Shown one piece after another: positions 24,700-46,850 of a stretch of DNA of 49,545 nucleotides. Location: assembly GCA_040391725.1 (NCBI GenBank), contig JBEBXF010000001.1:1-49545 (forward strand), written 5' to 3'. A program made the translations under genes and the position numbers. Each line of letters starts with the position of its first letter. Positions within the stretch are counted from its first letter, which is position 1. Under the pieces are notes generated by a model. The model made no database searches. It saw nothing but the letters and a program-made list of their open reading frames with translations, and had not been told where the DNA came from. The stretch comes from Eoetvoesiella caeni. Lineage in GTDB: Bacteria > Pseudomonadota > Gammaproteobacteria > Burkholderiales > Burkholderiaceae_B.

Positions 24700-25002
24700 A
24701 TGCGAATCATAGCGATCAGCGTACTACGTCAATTCTGGGAAAAACATCCTGACTCAGAACAGTCCATCAAAGCTTGGGTAGACGAAGCTCGTAAAGCTCA
24801 ATGGGCCCAACCCTCCGAGATCAAGGCGCTTTACCGTAGCGCCAGCATTCTAAAAAACCGACGTGTCGTGTTCAATATCAAAGGCAATGACTACCGTCTA
24901 GTAGCGGCTGTGGCATTCAAATTGAGTGTTGTCTATGTGAAATTCATCGGCACCCATGCCCAATACGACAAAATCGACGCCGAAACAGTGGAAATGGAGT
25001 AA
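24700..25002 (+). CDS. higB: Type II TA toxin HigB (RelE-like mRNase)
   Basis: MRIIA...LRQFWEKHPD, RVVFNIKGNDYRL and FIGTHAQYDKID motifs. Confidence 0.92.
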   Translation: MRIIAISVLRQFWEKHPDSEQSIKAWVDEARKAQWAQPSEIKALYRSASILKNRRVVFNIKGNDYRLVAAVAFKLSVVYVKFIGTHAQYDKIDAETVEME

Positions 25003-25004
25003 AC

Positions 25005-25385
25005 ATGGAAATCCGCCCCATACATACCAAAGCCGATTACAAATCGGCTCTCAAGGAAATTTCCCGGCTCATGGAGTCGGACCCCGACATAGGTACCCCC
25101 GATGGAGATCGCCTGGATATTCTGGTTACACTGGTGCAAGCCTACGAAGCCAAGCACTATCCGATAGATCTGCCCGACCCGATAGAAGCCATCAAGTTCC
25201 GGATGGAGCAAGCTGACCTGACCCCTAAGGATCTAGAACCAATGATCGGTCGCATGAATCGAGTCTATGAAATACTGAATCGCAAACGGTCGCTGACTCT
25301 TCCCATGATCCGAAAGCTACACCAGGAACTTGGTATCCCCGCGGAAAGCTTGATCCAGCCTTCGAAATACACCTCAGCAGCCTGA
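25005..25385 (+). CDS. higA: Type II TA antitoxin HigA
   Basis: I.T.ADY..AL, DPIEAIKFRMEQ and HTH EILNRKRSLTL.MIR.LH motifs; toxin-first gene order. Confidence 0.92.
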   Translation: MEIRPIHTKADYKSALKEISRLMESDPDIGTPDGDRLDILVTLVQAYEAKHYPIDLPDPIEAIKFRMEQADLTPKDLEPMIGRMNRVYEILNRKRSLTLPMIRKLHQELGIPAESLIQPSKYTSAA

Positions 25386-25388
25386 CTC

Positions 25389-26279
25389 TCAATCTTCAGC
25401 CGAAAACTGCCTGACCTGGGTCAGAAACGCCTGGAGTATGGGCGAGGTGTCGTGGCGGCGGTACATGCAGCACAGCTCGATGTCGCGCAAGGCCCGGGAT
25501 TTCAGCGGCTTGTAGACGAGGTTGGGCAGGCGCAGCGTTTCGGCCGACTGGGTGGTAATGCAGACGCCGAAGTTGCTGGCCACCAGGGCGAGACAGGTGA
25601 CAATGTCCTCGCTGTCCTGCTCGACGCGGAACCGCACGCCTTCGGCGCGAAAGGCCGCGGCGATTTCCTGGCCCAGTCCGTACAAGGGCGCGTTGGGGTA
25701 GACCACCATGGGCTCGTCGTCCAGATCCTGCAGGGAAACCGAGTCCTGGGCGCAAAGCCGATGGCCTTTGTACAGCGCCACCAGAAAGGGCTCGCGCAGC
25801 ACGACCTCGACGGCCAGGTCTTCTTCGTCCGGCACCAGGCGGTTGAAGCCGATGGAAATGCGCCGTTCGCGCAGGGCCACTATCTGCTGGGCCTTGGTCA
25901 TGTTGTACAGGCCGATCTTGACCTTGGGACTGCGCTTGTGAAAGCCGCCCAGGATGCGGGGGATGGCATTGAGGACGCCCGAGCTGAAGAAGCCCACGTC
26001 GAGCCGCCCGATGAAGCCTTCCTGCGCCAGTTGGGCTCTTTCCTCGGCCCGCTGGGTCAAGGCCAGGATATTGGGAACTTCCTCCAGCAGCGCCCGGCCC
26101 GACTCGGTCAGTTCGGCGCCCTTGGGCGTGCGCACGAAAAGCGGCACGCCCAGCTCGTCCTCGAGCGCCTTGATGTGGCGGGTCAGCGGCGGCTGGGTAA
26201 TGTGCAGTTTTTCCGCGGCCCGGCCGAAATTCAATTCCTGCGCCAGCATCAGGAAATAGCGCATCTGCTTGATGTCCAT
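25389..26279 (-). CDS. LysR family regulator (CatR/BenM-like)
   Basis: YF...A.ELNFGRAAEKLHITQPPLTR HTH; divergent from the dioxygenase. Confidence 0.9.
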   Translation of the reverse strand: MDIKQMRYFLMLAQELNFGRAAEKLHITQPPLTRHIKALEDELGVPLFVRTPKGAELTESGRALLEEVPNILALTQRAEERAQLAQEGFIGRLDVGFFSSGVLNAIPRILGGFHKRSPKVKIGLYNMTKAQQIVALRERRISIGFNRLVPDEEDLAVEVVLREPFLVALYKGHRLCAQDSVSLQDLDDEPMVVYPNAPLYGLGQEIAAAFRAEGVRFRVEQDSEDIVTCLALVASNFGVCITTQSAETLRLPNLVYKPLKSRALRDIELCCMYRRHDTSPILQAFLTQVRQFSAED

Positions 26280-26314
26280 GCATCCCTCGACTTCCAAAAA
26301 GTATCGCTTAGATA

Positions 26315-26350
26315 ATACCGATTCGGTATCGAGTTATCAAAATTCAGTAT
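26315..26350. promoter_or_regulatory. CatR/BenM-type LysR binding sites
   Basis: ATAC-N7-GTAT at 26315-26329 and degenerate ATCA-N7-GTAT at 26336-26350. Confidence 0.75.
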
Positions 26351-26487
26351 TGGACGACATAGCTTCGCCGGTGCCATCATAGACGACGCGGTGTACTTCC
26401 CCCCCTCCAGACCAAAGCATCCGCCGGGGCATGGAACGGCGGAAATCGCCAGCCGCAAACATACTACAGACACGCGAAGAGGCAGTC

Positions 26488-27438
26488 ATGATCATTACCC
26501 GCCAACAAGACGTCACCGAAGCCGTGCTCGGCGAACTCGAACGTGCGCCCGACGAACGCTTCCGCGAAATCATGTCGGCGGCGGTGCGCCACCTGCACGA
26601 CTTCGCCCGCGAAGTGAATCTCACCGAGGCGGAATTCCACAAGGCGTGCACCTATATTGCCAAGCTGGGCCAGATGACCACCGACTCGCACAACGAAGTC
26701 GTGCTGGCCGCAGGCTCGCTGGGCCTTTCCTCGCTGGTCTGTCTGCTGAACAACGGCGACAACGGGCAAACCGACACCACCGCCAACCTCATGGGGCCGT
26801 TCTGGCGCCTGGATTCGCCCCGCGTCCAGAACGGCGAATCCATCGTTCGCGGGCCGACTCCGGGGGAACCCATTTTCGTGCAGGCCTGGGTTCACGACCG
26901 CGAAGGCCGGCCCGTGGCCGACGCGGAAGTCGACGTCTGGCACACCTCGGCCGAAGGGTTTTATGAAAACCAGGATCCGGGGCAGGCCAATATGAATCTG
27001 CGCGGCAAGTTCACCACCGACGAAAACGGCCATATTGCGTTCCGCAGCGTCAAGCCCGCGGGCTATCCCATCCCCATCGGCGGTCCCGTCGGCGAGCTGC
27101 TGCGCGCTCAGGGGCGGCACAATATGCGCCCGGCCCACATCCACTTCATGATCTACAAGCCGGGCTACAAAACGCAGTTCTCGCAGGTGTATTCCAGCGA
27201 CGACCCCAACCTGGACACCGACGTGCAGTTCGGCGTCACCCGCGCCCTGGTGGGCGAATACGTGCTGCACGAGAACCAGCCCGCGCCCTACGGCGACGTA
27301 CAGGGGCCGTGGTATTCGCTGGACTACCACTTCACCATCGAGCCCGGCCAGGCCACCCTGCCCAAGCCGCCCATCACCGGCAAGGCGGAAGGCCCGCGCC
27401 CGCAACTCCAGATCCTCAAGCGCACGGAACCGGCCTGA
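26488..27438 (+). CDS. Intradiol ring-cleavage dioxygenase (catechol/hydroxyquinol 1,2-dioxygenase family)
   Basis: N-terminal helical dimerisation domain; VDVWH; Fe(III) ligands in GFY, GYPIP and RPAHIH. Confidence 0.9.
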   Translation: MIITRQQDVTEAVLGELERAPDERFREIMSAAVRHLHDFAREVNLTEAEFHKACTYIAKLGQMTTDSHNEVVLAAGSLGLSSLVCLLNNGDNGQTDTTANLMGPFWRLDSPRVQNGESIVRGPTPGEPIFVQAWVHDREGRPVADAEVDVWHTSAEGFYENQDPGQANMNLRGKFTTDENGHIAFRSVKPAGYPIPIGGPVGELLRAQGRHNMRPAHIHFMIYKPGYKTQFSQVYSSDDPNLDTDVQFGVTRALVGEYVLHENQPAPYGDVQGPWYSLDYHFTIEPGQATLPKPPITGKAEGPRPQLQILKRTEPA

Positions 27439-27483
27439 AGGCCCCAAACCCGCAGCTCGTCACTGCTTACAAGGAAACCATGC

Positions 27484-28293
27484 ATGAATCACGATGAAAT
27501 CGAAGCGGCGGCCGCCGCGCTGCGCGAAGCGGCGCGCACGCGGCAATGCATCGCGCCGCTGCGCACCACCTACCCGTCATTGGCCATAGACTCGGCCTAC
27601 GCCATCCAGGCTCTCAACACGCAGCTGCGCCTCAAGGAAGAAGGCCGGCGCATCGTCGGCCGCAAGATCGGCCTGACCTCGCTGGCCGTCCAGAAGCAGT
27701 TGGGCGTGGATCAGCCCGATTTCGGCGTGCTGTTCGACGACATGGGCTACGGCGACCGCGAACCCATTCCCGCCTCGGCGCTGCTGCAGCCCAAGGTCGA
27801 AGCGGAAATCGCCTTCGTCATGGGCGCCGACCTGAACGTCGCCAATCCCGGCCAGCTCGACGTGCTCAACGCCATCGACTATGCCCTGCCCGCCATTGAA
27901 ATCGTGGGCAGCCGTATCGCCAACTGGGACATCCGCATCACCGACACCATTGCCGACAATGCGTCTTCAGGCGCCTTCGTGCTGGGCGGCACACCGCGCA
28001 AGCTGTCGGAGTTCGACCTGCACCTGTGCGGCATGGTCATGGAACATAACGGCGAGCCCGTCTCGGTGGGCGCCGGCGCGGCCTGCCTGGGCCATCCGCT
28101 GAATGCGGTCGTATGGCTGGCCCGCACCCTGGCCAGGCTCGATACCCCCTTGCGCAAGGGCGACCTGGTGCTGTCGGGCGCCCTGGGACCCATGGCGGCG
28201 GTCAAGCCTGGCGACGTCTTCGAGGCCCGCATCAATGGGCTGGGCTCGGTCGCGGCTGTTTTTGAACACGATACCAACGAGGCGCAATCATGA
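27484..28293 (+). CDS. 2-oxopent-4-enoate hydratase (DmpE/MhpD-like)
   Basis: [29 protein letters not shown] and DTIADNAS motifs. Confidence 0.88.
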
Positions 28294-29057
28294 AGGCCCT
28301 GAACGACTACGCCGTCCTGCTCGACGATGCCGCGCACCATGCCCGGGAAGTTGCCCAGTTCGACACCGAAAGCCGGCTGTCGCTGGATGACGCCTATGCC
28401 ATCCAGGCCGCCTCGATCCAGCGGCGCCTGGCGCGGGGCGAACGCCGCGTCGGCGTCAAGATGGGCTTCACCAGCCGCGCCAAGATGCTGCAGATGGGGC
28501 TTTCCGACGTTATCTGGGGCCGGCTGACCGACGCCATGCAAATCGAGGAAGGCACGTCCATCGACCTGTCGCACTATGTCCATCCGCGCGTCGAGCCCGA
28601 GCTGGCGTTCTTCCTGAAAAAGCCGCTGGCCGGCAAGGTGACCGGCCCCGAGGCGCTGGCCGCCGTCGAGGCCATCGCCCCCGCGCTGGAAATCATCGAC
28701 TCGCGCTACAAGGATTTCAAGTTCACCCTGCCCGAAGTCATTGCCGACAACGCCTCGTCCAGCAGTTTCGTCATCGGCGCCTGGCGCGATCCGGCCATCG
28801 ACTTCGGCAATCTGGGGCTTACCTTGAACATCGGCGGACGCGCCGTCCAGGTCGGTTCCACCGCCGCCCTGCTGGGCCATCCCCTGCGCTCGCTCATCGC
28901 CGCGGCACGCGTGGCGGCGCAGGCGGGCGAGCCGCTGCAGGCCGGCTGGATCGTCATGGCCGGCGGAGCCACCCCCGCCGAATGGATCAAGCCGGGGCAA
29001 TACATCTCCATCGACATGGAGCAACTGGGCCGGGCGGGTTTCCACACCCTGGACTGA
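28290..29057 (+). CDS. 4-oxalocrotonate decarboxylase (DmpH/XylI-like)
   Basis: [22 protein letters not shown] and [18 protein letters not shown] motifs. Confidence 0.88.
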
Positions 29058-29104
29058 ACAGCCCGCGCACACGGAATCACCGCGACCCAATTCTGGAGCA
29101 TTCA

Positions 29105-30064
29105 ATGAACGACAAAGTAAAGGTAGCCATCATCGGCCCCGGCAATATCGGCACCGACCTCATGATCAAGGTCATGCGCAACAGCAAGCACCTGGAAATG
29201 GGCGCCATGGTGGGCGTCGACCCCGCCTCGGACGGCCTGGCGCGCGCGCAGCGGCTGGGCGTCGCAACCACGGCCGAAGGCCTGGACGGCCTGCTCAAGC
29301 TCGACGTCTTTCCGGACATCGACATTGTGTTCGATGCCACGTCGGCGGGCGCGCATGCCCGCCACAACCAGGTGCTGCAGGAGCACGGCGTCCAGGTCAT
29401 CGACCTGACCCCCGCCGCCATCGGCCCCTACGTCATCCCGGCCATCAACCTCGAGGCCGAAAACGCCAGCAATATGAATATGGTCACCTGCGGCGGGCAG
29501 GCCACCATTCCCATGGTGGCGGCCGTATCGCGCGTGGCCAAAGTGCACTACGCCGAAATCGTCGCCTCCATCTCCAGCAAGTCGGCCGGCCCCGGCACGC
29601 GCGCCAACATCGACGAATTCACCGAAACCACGCGCAGCGCCATCGAGAAGCTGGGCGGCGCCGAACGCGGCAAGGCCGTCATCATCCTCAATCCGGCCGA
29701 ACCTCCGCTCATCATGCGCGACACGGTCTTCGTGCTGTCCGAGCTGGCAGACCAGGCCAAGGTGGAAGAAAGCATAGAGAAAATGGTGGCCACCGTGCAG
29801 GCCTACGTTCCGGGCTACCGCCTGAAGCAGCAGGTTCAATTCGACGTCATCGATCCGGCCAAGCCTCTCAATGTGCCGGGCATAGGTCTGCGCCACGGGC
29901 TGAAAACCTCGATCTACCTGGAAGTCGAAGGCGCCGCCCACTATCTGCCCTCGTACGCCGGCAACCTCGACATCATGACTTCCGCCGCCCTGGCCTGCGG
30001 CGACCTGATGGCACGCCGACGCCAGGACTCCGGCCTTTCACGCACACGCAAGGAGGCCGTGTAA
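29105..30064 (+). CDS. dmpF: Acetaldehyde dehydrogenase (acylating)
   Basis: [27 protein letters not shown] and YAGNLDIMT motifs. Confidence 0.93.
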
Positions 30065-31107
30065 TGGCCGCGAACAAAAAACTCTATATCTCCGACGTCA
30101 CCCTGCGCGACGGCAGCCACGCCATCCGTCATCAATACAGCATCGCCAACGTCGAGGCCATCGCCACCGCGCTCGACCTGGCCGGCGTCGACAGCCTGGA
30201 AGTCGCCCATGGCGACGGGCTCGAAGGCTCGAGCTTCAATTACGGCTTCGGCGCGCACAGCGACGTGGAATGGATCGAGGCCGCCGCCGAATGCGTCAAG
30301 CAGGCGAAAATCGCCACCCTGCTGCTGCCCGGCATCGGCACCACGCACGACCTGCGCCGCGCCTACGACGCGGGCGCGCGCGTCGTGCGGGTTGCCACGC
30401 ACTGCACCGAAGCGGACGTCTCGCGCCAGCATCTCGAATATGCCCGCGAACTGGGCATGGACCCGGTGGGCTTCCTGATGATGAGCCACATGACCACGCC
30501 CGCCAACCTCGCCAGACAGGCCAAGCTCATGGAAGACTACGGCGCCACCTGCGTATACGTGGTCGATTCGGGCGGCGCGCTGGGCATGAACGACGTGCGC
30601 GACCGCTTCCGCGCCTTCAAGGACGTACTCAAGCCCGAAACCCAGACCGGCATGCACGCCCACCACAACCTGAGCCTGGGCGTGGCCAACTCCATCGTGG
30701 CCGTCGAGGAAGGCTGCGACCGCATCGACGCCAGCCTGGCCGGCATGGGCGCCGGCGCCGGCAATGCACCGCTGGAAGTCTTCATTGCCGCGGCCGAACG
30801 CCTGGGCTGGAACCATGGCTGCGATCTTTACAAACTCATGGACGCCGCCGACGACCTGGTGCGCCCGCTGCAGGACAGGCCGGTGCGGGTCGATCGCGAA
30901 ACCCTGGCCCTGGGCTATGCCGGCGTGTACTCCAGCTTCTTGCGCCACGCCGAAGTCGCCGCCGCCAAATACGGCCTGAAAACCGTCGACATCCTGGTGG
31001 AACTGGGCCGGCGCAAGATGGTGGGCGGCCAGGAAGACATGATCGTCGACGTCGCGCTCGACCTGCTTGCCGCCCAACCTCCCGCAACCCAATTGAAAAC
31101 CGCATAA
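30064..31107 (+). CDS. dmpG: 4-hydroxy-2-oxovalerate aldolase
   Basis: [27 protein letters not shown] and GGQEDMI motifs. Confidence 0.93.
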
Positions 31108-31202
31108 GGAGAGCCGCCTGCCATTCAACTTTCTTTGCGACATGCTCACGGTCGATCCATCGACCATTGCAACCTAAAAATAATCGTTCCCTGGAGAAGA
31201 CA

Positions 31203-32378
31203 TTGAAAAAAGCATTACTGACGGCATTGGCCACCGCGTGCCTGGCCACGACAACCATGGCGAGCCATGCCGCCGAACCGTTCAAGATCGGCCTGATCAT
31301 CCCCATGACAGGCCCCTTCGCCTCGACCGGCAAGCAGGTCGAAGCCGGCGCCCGGCTGTACATGCAGCAGAACGGCGACAACGTGGACGGCCGCCAGATA
31401 CAGCTCATCGTCAAGGACGATGGTGGCATCCAGCCTGAAACCACCAAGCGCCTGGCTCAAGAGCTCGTCGTGCAGGAAAAGGTCAATGTGATCGCCGGCT
31501 TCGGCCTGACGCCGCTCGCCTTCGCCGCGGCGCCCATCGCCACGCAATCCAAGACGCCCATGATCGTCATGGCGGCCGGCACGTCGTCCATCATGCAGAA
31601 GTCGCCGTACATCGTCCGCACGTCCATGACACTGCCCCAGACCACCGCGCCCCTGGCCGACTGGGCCGCCAAGAACCCCAACTCCCACATCAAGTCGGTC
31701 GTGACGCTGGTGTCCGACTTCGGCCCGGGCCACGATGCCGAGAAGGTCTTCACCAAGCGCTTTACGGAAGGCGGCGGCAAGATCCTGGGCAATCTGCGCA
31801 TCCCGCAGCAGAACCCCGACTTCTCGCCGTTTCTGCAGCGCGTCAAAGACCTGAAGCCCGATGCCGTCTTCGTCTTCGTTCCCTCGGGCCAGGGCAGCAC
31901 GCTGATGAAGCAGTTCGCGCAGCGCGGGCTGGCCGCCGCGGGCATCAAGCTGATCGCCACAGGCGACGTGCTGGACGACGACCTGCTGCCCAGCATGGGC
32001 GACGAGGTGCTGGGCAGCATCACCTCCCAGCATTACTCGGCCGCCCACGACTCGCCTGAGAACAAGGCTTATGTCGCCGCACTCAGGAAGCTCACCAACA
32101 ACAGCATGCGCCCCAACTTCATGTCGGTGGGCGGCTACGACGGCATGCATCTGATCTATGCGGCGCTGAAAAAAGCCGGCCCCAATGCCACGGGCGACCA
32201 GCTTCTGGCCGCCATGAAGGGCGCCAGTTGGATGAGCCCGCGCGGCCCGGTCAGCATCGATCCTGAAACCCGCGACATCATCCAGAACGTGTATATCCGC
32301 AAAGCCGAAAGGGTCAACGGCGAAATCTACAACGTGGAATTCGACAAGATCGAGCACTTCAAGGATCCAGGCGTCTAA
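31203..32378 (+). CDS. Periplasmic substrate-binding protein (branched-chain/aromatic-acid type)
   Basis: TTG start after GGAGAAG; signal peptide; FKIGLIIPMTGPFA and SPRGP motifs. Confidence 0.88.
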   Translation: MKKALLTALATACLATTTMASHAAEPFKIGLIIPMTGPFASTGKQVEAGARLYMQQNGDNVDGRQIQLIVKDDGGIQPETTKRLAQELVVQEKVNVIAGFGLTPLAFAAAPIATQSKTPMIVMAAGTSSIMQKSPYIVRTSMTLPQTTAPLADWAAKNPNSHIKSVVTLVSDFGPGHDAEKVFTKRFTEGGGKILGNLRIPQQNPDFSPFLQRVKDLKPDAVFVFVPSGQGSTLMKQFAQRGLAAAGIKLIATGDVLDDDLLPSMGDEVLGSITSQHYSAAHDSPENKAYVAALRKLTNNSMRPNFMSVGGYDGMHLIYAALKKAGPNATGDQLLAAMKGASWMSPRGPVSIDPETRDIIQNVYIRKAERVNGEIYNVEFDKIEHFKDPGV

Positions 32379-32404: not shown

Positions 32405-33094
32405 CTATTTATTGCCTTTGCGGGACGCGCCGAGCGCCGCCTGCGGCAGGGCGCGCCGGCCGGTCACATGCACGACGTCATCGTCAGGCGCCGCGCCTTC
32501 GGCATTCACGAAGCCGCGCAAAAGGCGCAGGAATGGCTCCTGCTCGTCCGGCGCAAGGCGGGCAAGCAACTGGTTCTTCATGTTCTGGATGCCGCTTTGC
32601 ATGCCTTGCAGCACCTCTTTGCCAGTACGGGTCAGGGACAAACGCCGCTGACGGCGTTTTTCTATATAAAGCTCGCGCACGATCAGGCCCTTGGCCTCGA
32701 GCCGAACCGCGGTTTCGGCCGTGGTCGAGTTGTCCAGAGCCACCAGTTTGGCCAGCGTTACCTGGTCGATACCGGGGTTTTCATCCAGCGCCACCAGCAA
32801 GGCGTATTGCAGCGGCGTCAGGCTGTCGCGGCCGACATTGTCGTAGAACGACGCCACCACGATCTGCTGGGCGCGGCGCAGCAAATGCCCCGGATGGTCA
32901 TTCAATTCATGGGGGATCCGCTGCGCGGCGGCTTCGGGCGCCCCCGCGTCCGACTGGCCGGTCGTTCCCGGCGCCATCGGCAGCCCCCGGCGGCTCTTGG
33001 ACTGCTTGCCTGCCTCACCGGTTGCCTTGCCCTTGCCCGCGCCGCCGCGACTGTCTTCTTTTGCTGTATTCCTGGATCGGGCGGTCATGGGCAT
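32405..33094 (-). CDS. MarR family regulator (PcaV/MobR-like) with an N-terminal extension
   Basis: PGHLLRRAQQ, LTPLQYA and IDQ.TLA..VALD.ST....RLE.KGL motifs; start uncertain. Confidence 0.85.
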   Translation of the reverse strand: MPMTARSRNTAKEDSRGGAGKGKATGEAGKQSKSRRGLPMAPGTTGQSDAGAPEAAAQRIPHELNDHPGHLLRRAQQIVVASFYDNVGRDSLTPLQYALLVALDENPGIDQVTLAKLVALDNSTTAETAVRLEAKGLIVRELYIEKRRQRRLSLTRTGKEVLQGMQSGIQNMKNQLLARLAPDEQEPFLRLLRGFVNAEGAAPDDDVVHVTGRRALPQAALGASRKGNK

Positions 33095-33125: not shown

Positions 33126-34160
33126 CTATGACATGGCGGGAGCGCGCTCGCGCTGTTCATCAGCCACCATGGCCTGCAGCACGCGCCGCCCGCGTATGGG
33201 GCCGCTATCGACGGTAATGGCGGTCTGGACGGGATTATCGCATTCATCGGGGGTCAGCGCCGACTGCTGCAGTTCGACCACCACCTTGTCCTCGTTGTGC
33301 GTGGCGCCCACGGCTTCCTGGATATAGCGTGTCAGGAATTCGTCGTCCTGGCGGAAATTGCGCACGAAGGCCCAGAAATAATGCGTGGAACTCGCGGTTT
33401 CGGGCGTGGCCAGATGCATGACGCAGCCCGTGATCTCGCCCAGGCCGTCGCCCTCGTGCAGCGCCCGGCAGCCGACCTCGATCACGCAGATCGACGGCGC
33501 ATGGTAATTGACCGTATGCCAGCGATGGATGGGCTTGGTGTATTTGCCCAGGTAGGTGTAGAACGGCGGCGCCATGGCGCCCACGACGTCCCGATGCACG
33601 CGAACGACACTGCCCTGCTGGGACACTTCGATGGGCGACTCGGCCACCGCCGCATTGCCGATGGTGCGGCCATGCACAAAGGCCACATGCGAAAGATCGA
33701 GCAGGTTGTCGTTGAGCAGGCGGTAGTCGGCCTGCAAATGGCAATAACCCTGGCTGGGGATCCACTCGGGGTTATCCAGCCGGCTCATGTCCGGCACAAG
33801 AGCGGGATCGGCCTGCTCGGGATCGCCCATCCATATCCATAACAGCCGGTCGCGCTCGATAACGGGAAACGACCGGACACAGGCGGAAGCGGGGATTTTT
33901 TCCTGGCCCGGGATGCGCGTGCACTGCCCTTGCCCATTGAACGCCATGCCGTGGTACCCGCAAACGACCTGGTCGTTTTCCACGTAGCCGAAGGAAAGCG
34001 GCAGCCGCCGGTGGGCGCAGCGGTCTTCCAGCGCGGCGACGGTATCGTCGCCGCGGCGATACAGCACAACGGCTTTTCCCAGGAATTTGCGGGCCAGCAG
34101 CCCGCCTTGGACTTCGGAAGAAAAAGCCGCCACATACCAAGCATTTTCAGGCCACATCAT
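33126..34160 (-). CDS. Rieske non-heme iron oxygenase (VanA/TsaM/DdmC-like monooxygenase or O-demethylase)
   Basis: CAH...CGYHG Rieske motif; DNLLDLSHVAFVH and NED mononuclear Fe ligands. Confidence 0.9.
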   Translation of the reverse strand: MMWPENAWYVAAFSSEVQGGLLARKFLGKAVVLYRRGDDTVAALEDRCAHRRLPLSFGYVENDQVVCGYHGMAFNGQGQCTRIPGQEKIPASACVRSFPVIERDRLLWIWMGDPEQADPALVPDMSRLDNPEWIPSQGYCHLQADYRLLNDNLLDLSHVAFVHGRTIGNAAVAESPIEVSQQGSVVRVHRDVVGAMAPPFYTYLGKYTKPIHRWHTVNYHAPSICVIEVGCRALHEGDGLGEITGCVMHLATPETASSTHYFWAFVRNFRQDDEFLTRYIQEAVGATHNEDKVVVELQQSALTPDECDNPVQTAITVDSGPIRGRRVLQAMVADEQRERAPAMS

Positions 34161-45398: not shown

Positions 45399-46850
45399 AT
45401 GACCACCATTTCAATGCTCATCAACGGCCAAAAAAAGCAGGCCGGCAACGGCGCCACGTTCGAACGAAAAAACCCGCTTGACGGCAGCGTCGCCACCGTC
45501 GCTCCGGCCGCGACCATCGAAGACGCCATTGCCGCGGTGGAAGCCGCCGGCAAGGCCTTTCCCGCCTGGTCGGCCATAGGCCCCAACGAGCGCCGGGCGC
45601 TGCTTTCCAAAGCCGCCAGCGCCCTGGAAGCCAAGACCGACGCGTTCATCGCCGCCATGGCCGGCGAAACCGGCTCGTCCGCCATGTGGGCGGGCTTCAA
45701 CGCCCATCTGGCCGCCAGCATGCTGCACGAGGCCGCCGCGCTGACCACTCAGATCAGCGGCGAGGTCATCCCCTCCGACGTTCCCGGCAACCTGGCGATG
45801 GGGCTGCGCCAGCCGGCGGGCGTCGTGCTGGGCATGGCCCCCTGGAACGCCCCCGTCATTCTTGGCGTGCGGGCCATCGCCACGCCTCTGGCCTGCGGCA
45901 ATACCGTCGTGCTGAAAGGCTCTGAAATCTGCCCCGCCACCCACGGCCTCATCATCGAAGCCATACAAGAAGCCGGTCTGCCCGACGGCGTCGTCAACTT
46001 CATCACCAACGCCCCGGCCGACGCGGGCCCGCTGGTCGAAGCCATGGTCGCCCATCCTGCCGTGCGCCGCGTGAACTTCACCGGCTCCACCCGCGTGGGC
46101 AAGGTCATTGCCGCCGTCTGCGCCAAATACCTCAAGCCGGTGGTCCTGGAGCTGGGCGGCAAGGCGCCTCTGGTCATCCTGGACGACGCCGACATCGGCC
46201 AGGCCGTCGACGCCGCCGCCTTCGGCGCCTTTGCCAATTCGGGGCAAATCTGCATGTCCACCGAACGCATCATCGTCGACGAAAAAATCGCCGATGCGTT
46301 CATCGGGCAGCTCACCAAAAAAGCCGTCGGCCTGCCCCTGGGCGATCCGCGCAAAGGCCCGGTGGTCCTGGGTTCGGTCGTCGACATGAGCACGGTGACC
46401 CGCTGCAACGAAATCATCGACGACGCCCTCGCCAAAGGCGCCAAGCTGCTGTGCGGCGGCAAGGCCGAAAACACGCTCATGCCGGCCACGCTCATCGACC
46501 ACGTCACACCGGCCATGCGGATCTACAGCGAAGAAACCTTCGCGCCCGTCAAGGGCATCGTGCGGGCCAAGGGTGTGGAAGAAGCCATTGCCATCGCCAA
46601 CGACAACCCCTATGGCCTGTCATCGGCGGTCTTCGGCAAAGACGTGGGCCGGGCCTTGCAGGTAGCCAAGCGCATCGAAACGGGTATCTGCCACGTCAAC
46701 GGCCCGACCGTCCACGACGAAGCGCAAATGCCGTTCGGCGGCGTCAAGGACAGCGGCATCGGACGCTTCGGCGGCAAGGCCGGCATCGAAGCCTTCACCG
46801 ACCTGCGCTGGGTATCCGTGCAAACCACGCCACGCCAATACCCGTTCTAA
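45399..46850 (+). CDS. Aldehyde dehydrogenase (vanillin/salicylaldehyde dehydrogenase-like)
   Basis: APWNAP, FTGST, LELGGK, GQICMSTER and HVNGPTVHDE motifs. Confidence 0.9.
   Translation: MTTISMLINGQKKQAGNGATFERKNPLDGSVATVAPAATIEDAIAAVEAAGKAFPAWSAIGPNERRALLSKAASALEAKTDAFIAAMAGETGSSAMWAGFNAHLAASMLHEAAALTTQISGEVIPSDVPGNLAMGLRQPAGVVLGMAPWNAPVILGVRAIATPLACGNTVVLKGSEICPATHGLIIEAIQEAGLPDGVVNFITNAPADAGPLVEAMVAHPAVRRVNFTGSTRVGKVIAAVCAKYLKPVVLELGGKAPLVILDDADIGQAVDAAAFGAFANSGQICMSTERIIVDEKIADAFIGQLTKKAVGLPLGDPRKGPVVLGSVVDMSTVTRCNEIIDDALAKGAKLLCGGKAENTLMPATLIDHVTPAMRIYSEETFAPVKGIVRAKGVEEAIAIANDNPYGLSSAVFGKDVGRALQVAKRIETGICHVNGPTVHDEAQMPFGGVKDSGIGRFGGKAGIEAFTDLRWVSVQTTPRQYPF

Follow-up and report, generated by a model that had tools for sequence, protein, structure and literature searches.

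A candidate pyrogallol 1,2-dioxygenase operon with meta-type lower pathway enzymes in Eoetvoesiella caeni

We analysed a stretch of 49,545 nucleotides from Eoetvoesiella caeni (hereafter the window; contig C1 of a 3.2 Mb assembly that is 58.8% complete), which carries an operon where an intradiol dioxygenase of an uncharacterised clade is followed by the lower enzymes of a meta-cleavage pathway. From the gene context we propose that this dioxygenase opens a ring with three adjacent hydroxyls. That its product is of the 2-hydroxymuconate type, be the ring pyrogallol, gallate or 2,3,4-trihydroxybenzoate, appears likely, because two unrelated downstream modules accompany the dioxygenase in its clade, a tautomerase gene may lie directly behind its own, and no semialdehyde enzyme is found with it. 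Pyrogallol, a plant phenol, is the single candidate substrate towards which the gene context inclines us, because the canonical DmpFG pair requires an unsubstituted ring-fission acid. Indeed, with a canonical DmpG and DmpF acetaldehyde is to be expected, and a ring-fission acid without an extra carboxyl is therefore needed.

The operon and its proposed route

A sequence-only reading of this DNA had described a divergent LysR gene, the dioxygenase, a hydratase, a decarboxylase, a dehydrogenase, an aldolase and a solute-binding protein. All are intact and in this order in the gene calls of the window:

25389-26279, minus strand: LysR-type regulator, divergent (Pfam HTH_1 and LysR_substrate)
26315-26329, no strand: putative LysR recognition box ATACC-N5-GGTAT (ATACCGATTCGGTAT), overlapping the predicted lysR promoter
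26488-27438, plus strand: intradiol dioxygenase of an uncharacterised clade (G76/S77/Q247), candidate pyrogallol 1,2-dioxygenase (Pfam Dioxygenase_N and C, PF04444 and PF00775)
27484-28293, plus strand: 2-hydroxypenta-2,4-dienoate hydratase, MhpD type (PRK11342, 357.7 bits, above the cut-off of 350)
28290-29057, plus strand: 4-oxalocrotonate decarboxylase (closest to PDB 8IH6 chain F; TIGR03218 is the best family, below cut-off)
29105-30064, plus strand: acetaldehyde dehydrogenase (acylating), DmpF type (TIGR03215, 472.8 bits, above cut-off)
30064-31107, plus strand: 4-hydroxy-2-oxovalerate aldolase, DmpG type (TIGR03217, 594.6 bits, above cut-off)
31203-32378, plus strand: ATP-binding cassette (ABC) solute-binding protein, Peripla_BP_6 (TTG start behind GGAGAAG)

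The gaps from the dioxygenase to the solute-binding protein gene are 45, -4, about 45, -1 and about 100 nt, and the genes are predicted to be co-transcribed. Lower enzymes of the DmpE, DmpF, DmpG and DmpH types are all present. The aldolase aligns without gaps to DmpG (1NVM, 615.8 bits). The decarboxylase reaches 293 bits against 8ih6_F, a type that we take to be AmnE, versus 163 against NahK, and it scores below the DmpH cut-off. A chance mosaic or a misassembly was ruled out, as the same tautomerase-free order occurs in L007 and L163 (L-numbers are locus labels) and the GC content at third codon positions (GC3) is even, at 0.84-0.87, from lysR through the solute-binding protein gene. The cluster of this last protein is also present in L007, L023, L066, L068 and L077, and the protein likely handles the aromatic substrate of the operon.

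In the proposed route, the dioxygenase would break pyrogallol open between two carbons that each bear a hydroxyl, so that 2-hydroxymuconate forms directly and the semialdehyde is skipped. Conversion to 4-oxalocrotonate would be spontaneous or would be carried out by a tautomerase, whose gene lies elsewhere here and within the operon in most relatives. From there, the decarboxylase, hydratase, aldolase and acylating dehydrogenase would lead to CO2, pyruvate and acetyl-CoA. The LysR protein likely activates the operon from the conserved box in response to a presumed inducer, and the ring probably comes from a syringyl-type compound that a VanA-like oxygenase, encoded downstream, O-demethylates.

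The genes annotated in the window include none for an extradiol dioxygenase, a semialdehyde dehydrogenase or semialdehyde hydrolase, a cycloisomerase, a maleylacetate reductase or a tautomerase, and neither a pattern search nor tblastn revealed a hidden tautomerase in the window. The sequence-only reading had concluded from such absences that no standard meta or ortho route is complete. However, a true semialdehyde dehydrogenase is encoded on contig C225 of the host genome, and the assembly is 58.8% complete; the absences therefore apply to the locus and not to the cell.

The dioxygenase clade and the conservation of its linkage

The dioxygenase has the N-terminal helical dimerisation domain and the catalytic domain of the catechol/hydroxyquinol-type intradiol enzymes. 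The two tyrosines and two histidines that had been called intact (iron ligands Y159, Y193, H217 and H219) are indeed there, together with R214, and are invariant across the clade. The AlphaFold model, with a predicted local distance difference test (pLDDT) score of 94, matches 1TMX with template modelling (TM) scores of 0.83-0.89 in Foldseek. The nearest solved structures are the hydroxyquinol dioxygenases 1TMX, PnpC 3N9T and TsdC 8R2X, at 34-38% identity and TM 0.78-0.84 by query. The protein remains below the NCBIfam catechol and chlorocatechol equivalog cut-offs (147.5 versus 392, 141.8 versus 359 and 116.1 versus 404). It is 98% identical to a dioxygenase from Eoetvoesiella sp., and in the whole-library search the full-length matches stand at 64-65% identity, then at 51% and lower.

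We scanned 185,579 species genomes, in which 525 stretches encode a relative of the dioxygenase. Counts given as "of 80" concern the best 80 of these 525 and are skewed to close kin; a set of 178 loci extends up to 10 kb per side, many being shorter. In a tree of 145 rows, with every fourth metagenome row retained, the clade comprises 117 rows with a support of 98 in the Shimodaira-Hasegawa-like approximate likelihood ratio test (SH-aLRT). The family has Gly, Ser and Gln (G76, S77 and Q247) where 1TMX has Asp83, Val84 and Val251, and Gln in place of His237, with 1TMX numbers counted from the pairwise alignment. The hydroxyquinol-type residues Asp83, His237 and Val251, whose positions presumably line the substrate pocket, are thus replaced by Gly, Gln and Gln. 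Gly occupies the Asp83 position in 177 of the 178 locus rows, the single exception belonging to the sister group, and Asp83 is found in 21 of 21 outgroups, in three loci linked to a beta-keto-acid cleavage enzyme (BKACE) and in the three other intradiol enzymes of the host genome. Such replacements make an ordinary enzyme for hydroxyquinol or catechol less likely, without deciding between pyrogallol and a carboxylated pyrogallol. A hydroxyquinol route via BKACE was rejected, L117, L118 and L120 keeping Asp83 and Val251 and lying outside the clade; there, the sister-clade dioxygenase is accompanied by a short-chain dehydrogenase/reductase, BKACE, a Zn-dependent reductase and a cupin. A homologue search starting from the sister-clade protein returned no characterised member.

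The linkage between the dioxygenase and the lower module is not due to chance. Downstream of the dioxygenase, 24 of the 80 loci have the decarboxylase orthologue, and orthologues were likewise found for the hydratase (25, one of them in an unrelated cluster on the opposite strand), the aldolase (21), the dehydrogenase (20) and LysR (26, at 45% identity or more). On synteny, the check called for by the sequence-only reading came out in its favour. When loci are compared pair by pair, dioxygenase identity follows that of the decarboxylase, LysR and hydratase (rho 0.87-0.89, with 0.89 for the decarboxylase), which shows long co-inheritance through shared kin history and not independent co-evolution. 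With the window, the 24 loci make up 25 loci of the operon architecture, and 20 of these contain a 4-oxalocrotonate tautomerase gene, the exceptions being the window, L007, L056, L066 and L068. It lies directly behind the dioxygenase gene in L050 and L159, and is also present in four decarboxylase-free loci (three stand-alone, one metagenome). This tautomerase retains Pro1, Arg11 and Arg39, to which we assign their usual catalytic roles. The host genome encodes a two-domain tautomerase on contig C335.

Queries with a semialdehyde dehydrogenase and with a 3-hydroxyanthranilate dioxygenase found neither in the 178 loci. A maleylacetate-reductase-like query, an iron-alcohol dehydrogenase beside an Asp83-type paralogue taken as such by its context, gave 0 of 178 at 40% identity or more. 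A VOC dioxygenase is present in 4 of the 178, one of them of the operon architecture. As an internal control, the extradiol clusters L221 and L228 combine the same decarboxylase type with a semialdehyde dehydrogenase above cut-off. The direct formation of 2-hydroxymuconate, bypassing the semialdehyde, passed the synteny tests that were run (conserved linkage, tautomerase in relatives, lack of the semialdehyde dehydrogenase in 178 loci and a second module, described below). Separately, L226 and L227 contain a VOC extradiol dioxygenase, a hydratase and the same decarboxylase type, with no semialdehyde dehydrogenase called in 17 kb, and may represent another semialdehyde-bypass route.

The regulatory region is conserved as well. 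The ATAC-N7-GTAT box, which had been correctly spotted at 26315-26329, has no second match in the window. Where the LysR gene is directly divergent, the box is kept in 21 of 22 loci (a count that omits four LysR loci with a frame in between), versus 2 of 46 stand-alone loci. Both stand-alone genomes that have it carry lysR-tautomerase-hydratase-decarboxylase-dmpFG at another place, free of the dioxygenase. A promoter-like site on the minus strand (26340-26312, a consensus match only) overlaps the box; the promoter and terminator scan gave counts no higher than chance. The label "CatR-like" was too loose for this regulator, the best NCBIfam matches being AlsR, PRK09986 and HcaR, with CatM and BenM at 128 and 125 bits, far below their cut-offs.

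The second module consists of hpaH and hpaI. At about 60% identity, clade members were found on 29 of the 265 plasmid records with a match and in 13 of 400 phylum genomes. The hpaH and hpaI genes follow or flank the clade dioxygenase in 7 of 7 plasmid regions read, 3 of the 13 phylum genomes and 7 of the 80 close loci; the hpaH type also appears in 1 of 80 metagenome loci. This architecture belongs to rhizobia and some Burkholderiales, and the starred branches of the tree force at least five changes for each of the two architecture labels. HpaH hydrates 2-hydroxy-2,4-dienoates. In Methylobacterium nodulans, a single case, a CoA-acylating malonate/methylmalonate-semialdehyde dehydrogenase split in two frames lies behind hpaI (L102:11846-13255 on pMNOD01, unannotated in the record). 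It fits a six-carbon product, because 2-hydroxymuconate that is hydrated and split gives pyruvate and malonate semialdehyde. Both architectures can include, behind the dioxygenase or hpaI, an SBP_bac_3-fold protein with no evident signal peptide (SBP3-like; 16 of 178 loci by tblastn). Its sites are L019:10942-11697, L101, L103, L105-L107 and L110 behind hpaI, and L145. Its best solved matches are cyclohexadienyl-dehydratase ancestors, and it is possibly a pathway enzyme. For this protein and for the dioxygenase, the ESM Atlas gave generic family names only.

Candidate feeder genes and competing substrates

Two genes immediately downstream had been overlooked in an inventory that was otherwise right for the operon:

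32405-32977, minus strand: MarR regulator, start uncertain (Pfam), just beyond the span previously described
33126-34160, minus strand: VanA-like Rieske oxygenase, predicted O-demethylase (Pfam VanA_C and Rieske), outside that span

The MarR protein likely controls the VanA-like O-demethylase, and L007, L023 and two Pigmentiphaga loci have a MarR homologue next to the dioxygenase gene. No reductase gene adjoins the VanA-like gene. Among the candidates listed per genome, a VanA-like orthologue (68-96%) is present in 6 of 80 dioxygenase-bearing genomes versus 0 of 201 control-family genomes, and it lies near the clade dioxygenase in 5 of 5 cases examined. In two Pigmentiphaga-type loci its neighbours include a further Rieske oxygenase and a formaldehyde dehydrogenase, which fits O-demethylation. 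Other feeders are a LigM above cut-off behind the operon on an Agrobacterium plasmid (L101), a DesA-best protein near the operon in L122 and LigM-type matches in 3 of 80 metagenome loci. Moreover, shikimate dehydrogenase (AroE), type II dehydroquinase (AroQ) and a TIM-barrel protein recur in both architectures, and the best solved match of the last is Lmo2234, which we take to be a dehydroshikimate dehydratase. A LigW2-like decarboxylase (E 4e-125 to 4INF) accompanies hpaH-hpaI in L023, L077, L224 and L225. The host genome as a whole, 59% complete, is rich in aromatic catabolism, with about 20 VanA-like Rieske oxygenase matches, four intradiol dioxygenases and 29 FAA-hydrolase-family matches.

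One could go further and tentatively regard the clade as the missing pyrogallol 1,2-dioxygenase gene family, although we would sooner doubt than defend this extension as a whole. It would head a widespread proteobacterial pyrogallol pathway with two interchangeable lower branches, one through tautomerase and decarboxylase, the other through an undescribed HpaH/HpaI path to pyruvate and malonate semialdehyde. The pathway would be fed by O-demethylation of syringyl lignin and by quinate, possibly via an unrecognised gallate decarboxylase among the SBP3-like, signal-peptide-less proteins or the TIM-barrel proteins.

Several observations weigh against a pyrogallol pathway. Stand-alone genes in housekeeping surroundings predominate in the clade (48 of the 80 close loci were treated as such), and a tautomerase or hydratase is present in just 5 of 80 metagenome loci. 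Of the 48 stand-alone genomes, many of them incomplete assemblies, 28 have no decarboxylase match and 2 have an HpaH orthologue; the stand-alone enzyme may serve detoxification or feed unlinked enzymes. L109, L111 and L114, in whose genomes no LigJ match was found, place the clade dioxygenase between pcaF and pcaHG, which none of the proposed readings explains well. In Microvirga (L104, a single case) an RraA-family gene stands behind hpaI instead of a dehydrogenase and fits gallate. The fixed changes of the clade presumably face the distal part of the ring, a place that a carboxylate could occupy. The linked feeders (LigM, DesA, VanA-like and quinate enzymes) lead by their canonical reactions to protocatechuate or gallate, and among the recurring neighbours no known gallate decarboxylase was found, which is the main gap in our account. 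In neither the host genome nor its closest relative was a LigW2 orthologue found (best 44% and 41%). LigW-type enzymes act ortho to a hydroxyl (PMC6644310). Pyrogallol attacked in the intradiol mode can be turned into 2-pyrone-6-carboxylate (PMC6628648), and characterised hydroxyquinol dioxygenases are poorer on pyrogallol (PMC3727088).

Because the linked feeders make benzoates, and gallate would have to be decarboxylated to reach pyrogallol while no recognised gallate decarboxylase recurs, gallate and 2,3,4-trihydroxybenzoate stay in play. The pyrogallol named by the sequence-only reading stands as the best single candidate for the operon, with carboxylated pyrogallols still competing. An intradiol-family gallate dioxygenase would produce 4-carboxy-2-hydroxymuconate, with CHMI-, HpaH- and HpaI-like proteins standing in for GalD, GalB and GalC, and in the operon a branched keto acid would arise once this acid had lost CO2 and taken up water. 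We consider this unlikely. It would account for the linkage of three kinds of O-demethylase and of quinate/shikimate genes, for a CHMI-like gene in seven rhizobial loci and for the RraA-family gene of L104, and the loss of Asp83 could make room for a carboxylate. However, canonical DmpFG implies acetaldehyde, the malonate-semialdehyde dehydrogenase of L102 fits a six-carbon product, and none of the pocket positions checked holds an Arg or Lys. As for the oxalomesaconate hydratase LigJ, it is neither enriched in carriers (6 of 9 versus 113 of 192 non-carriers, for a background of 119 of 201) nor complementary to the lower modules. It is present in 40 of 48 stand-alone, 8 of 8 HpaH-type, 14 of 24 decarboxylase-type and 0 of 7 family f56 genomes. 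We therefore discarded the LigJ profile as a gallate test: showing no enrichment above background, it neither supports nor excludes gallate.

Less probable still is 2,3,4-trihydroxybenzoate as the substrate, whose carboxylated 2-hydroxymuconate would readily lose CO2 and join the same lower route. With such a substrate, a pocket that may accept a carboxylate would agree with a lower pathway for six carbons. Ahead of the dioxygenase, L079, L083 and L086 have genes for a VOC dioxygenase and a class II aldolase-like protein, and the LigW2-like enzyme could act on this compound. However, that linked ortho-decarboxylase could equally convert it to pyrogallol first, and quinate genes, LigM and DesA do not yield it by known chemistry. 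We give an equally small chance to cleavage of a 3-substituted catechol (3-methoxy or 3-amino), or of catechol in the extradiol mode, with hydrolysis, deamination or oxidation of the product left to enzymes of other loci. A hydroxyquinol dioxygenase that cleaves in either mode is on record (Murakami 1999, by its title, via PMC11634970), the VanA-like neighbour could give 3-methoxycatechol, the host has the semialdehyde dehydrogenase of C225, and the decarboxylase type also serves amino-aromatic clusters. Nevertheless, besides the lack of a linked semialdehyde dehydrogenase, a RidA-type deaminase homologue occurs in 1 of 178 loci, there is no esterase among the recurring conserved neighbours, and C225 carries its own lower enzymes; the earlier suggestion of 3-amino- or 3-methoxycatechol is weakened accordingly. 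Finally, it is very improbable that an ordinary 1,2-dioxygenase for catechol or hydroxyquinol came to lie next to a remnant meta module of unrelated function: automatic annotations do give these names to the family, most members stand alone, and L027 and L067 have the dioxygenase apart from the module, but the order, the LysR box and the matched divergence are conserved, Asp83 is lost clade-wide while kept in all outgroups and in the three other intradiol enzymes of the host, and no muconate cycloisomerase above cut-off was found in 4 of 4 Alcaligenaceae-type genomes (that of the host being 58.8% complete).

Other neighbours of the operon deserve mention. A HigB-type toxin and an antitoxin-like gene (24700-25385, plus strand; GC3 0.51 and 0.58) abut the lysR stop; they are missing at the matching place in L007 and L163 and are therefore a recent insertion. 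The segment 35220-41466 (minus strand) encodes an XRE regulator, an orotate phosphoribosyltransferase-like protein, an aspartase, an amidohydrolase and dihydroorotate dehydrogenase subunits; it is also found in Pusillimonas loci and looks like a pyrimidine or ureido-compound catabolic unit. A 483-residue aldehyde dehydrogenase (45399-46850, plus strand), which presumably resembles vanillin dehydrogenases, lies 13 kb off in the window, and the same cluster is near the operon in L024, L028, L066 and L068. As the missing semialdehyde dehydrogenase it was rejected, with 292 bits versus a cut-off of 693 and 35% identity to a true one. On contig C225 (581-5918), genes for a VOC dioxygenase, a class II aldolase-like protein, a semialdehyde dehydrogenase, a hydratase, a decarboxylase and an acylating dehydrogenase form a cluster that we take to resemble the 2,3-dihydroxybenzoate (dhb) route.

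Comparison with known systems

The chemistry proposed here is already known from yeast. No bacterial gene or operon assigned to the pyrogallol intradiol step was found in the literature searched, which left most subscription literature outside, so that a prior description is possible. PMC6628648 calls for a dioxygenase that cleaves pyrogallol cleanly to 2-hydroxymuconate, enabling full syringol assimilation, and PMC12455638 (2025) still presents the pyrogallol cleavage step as something to engineer. If our reading is true, the clade offers natural candidate enzymes with their own regulator and lower pathway for lignin bioconversion, and a gene for an orphan activity. It would also mean that ortho-type enzymes can head meta-type pathways, and the catechol or hydroxyquinol dioxygenase label that a common family of soil proteins now carries would be corrected.

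The hydroxyquinol 1,2-dioxygenases (1TMX, 3N9T and 8R2X) are closest in fold and sequence and share the iron ligands. They differ by Asp83, Val84, His237 and Val251, as against Gly, Ser, Gln and Gln in the clade, which is also without a maleylacetate-reductase-like gene in the 178 loci. With the dmp/xyl/amn lower pathway (DmpE/F/G/H/I; 8IH6, 8IH7) the operon shares the hydratase, the decarboxylase and the aldolase-dehydrogenase pair, and its relatives share the tautomerase; the extradiol dioxygenase and the semialdehyde dehydrogenase or hydrolase of that pathway are replaced here by one intradiol enzyme. The pyrogallol 1,2-oxygenase of Azotobacter vinelandii (EC 1.13.11.35) reportedly converts pyrogallol to oxalocrotonate, on which tautomerase, decarboxylase and hydratase act to give pyruvate and acetaldehyde. 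This chemistry matches the gene set of the operon, where the coupled decarboxylase and hydratase are present, with the tautomerase in 20 of 25 such loci. In contrast to that route, no resorcinol hydroxylase recurs beside the present clade.

The gallate and syringate routes (GalA/DesB, MgaAB, GalD/B/C, LigU/J/K; PMC12314914) likewise open a three-oxygen ring without a semialdehyde, and their linked clusters include an O-demethylase and formaldehyde dehydrogenase. However, their dioxygenase, tautomerase, hydratase and aldolase belong to other families, and they end in pyruvate and oxaloacetate. The closest assayed precedent is Acdo1p of Blastobotrys raffinosifermentans, for which PMC9204233 reports intradiol cleavage of pyrogallol to 2-hydroxymuconate, at an efficiency of 119 versus 3950 per mM per s for catechol, that is, 33-fold lower. 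In the proposed tannin route of this yeast, genes with oxalocrotonate decarboxylase, hydratase and aldolase annotations are co-induced. That system, in the same text, is built on a catechol 1,2-dioxygenase with unclustered genes and downstream enzymes that were not identified, whereas here a dedicated bacterial clade stands with its lower enzymes in one operon.

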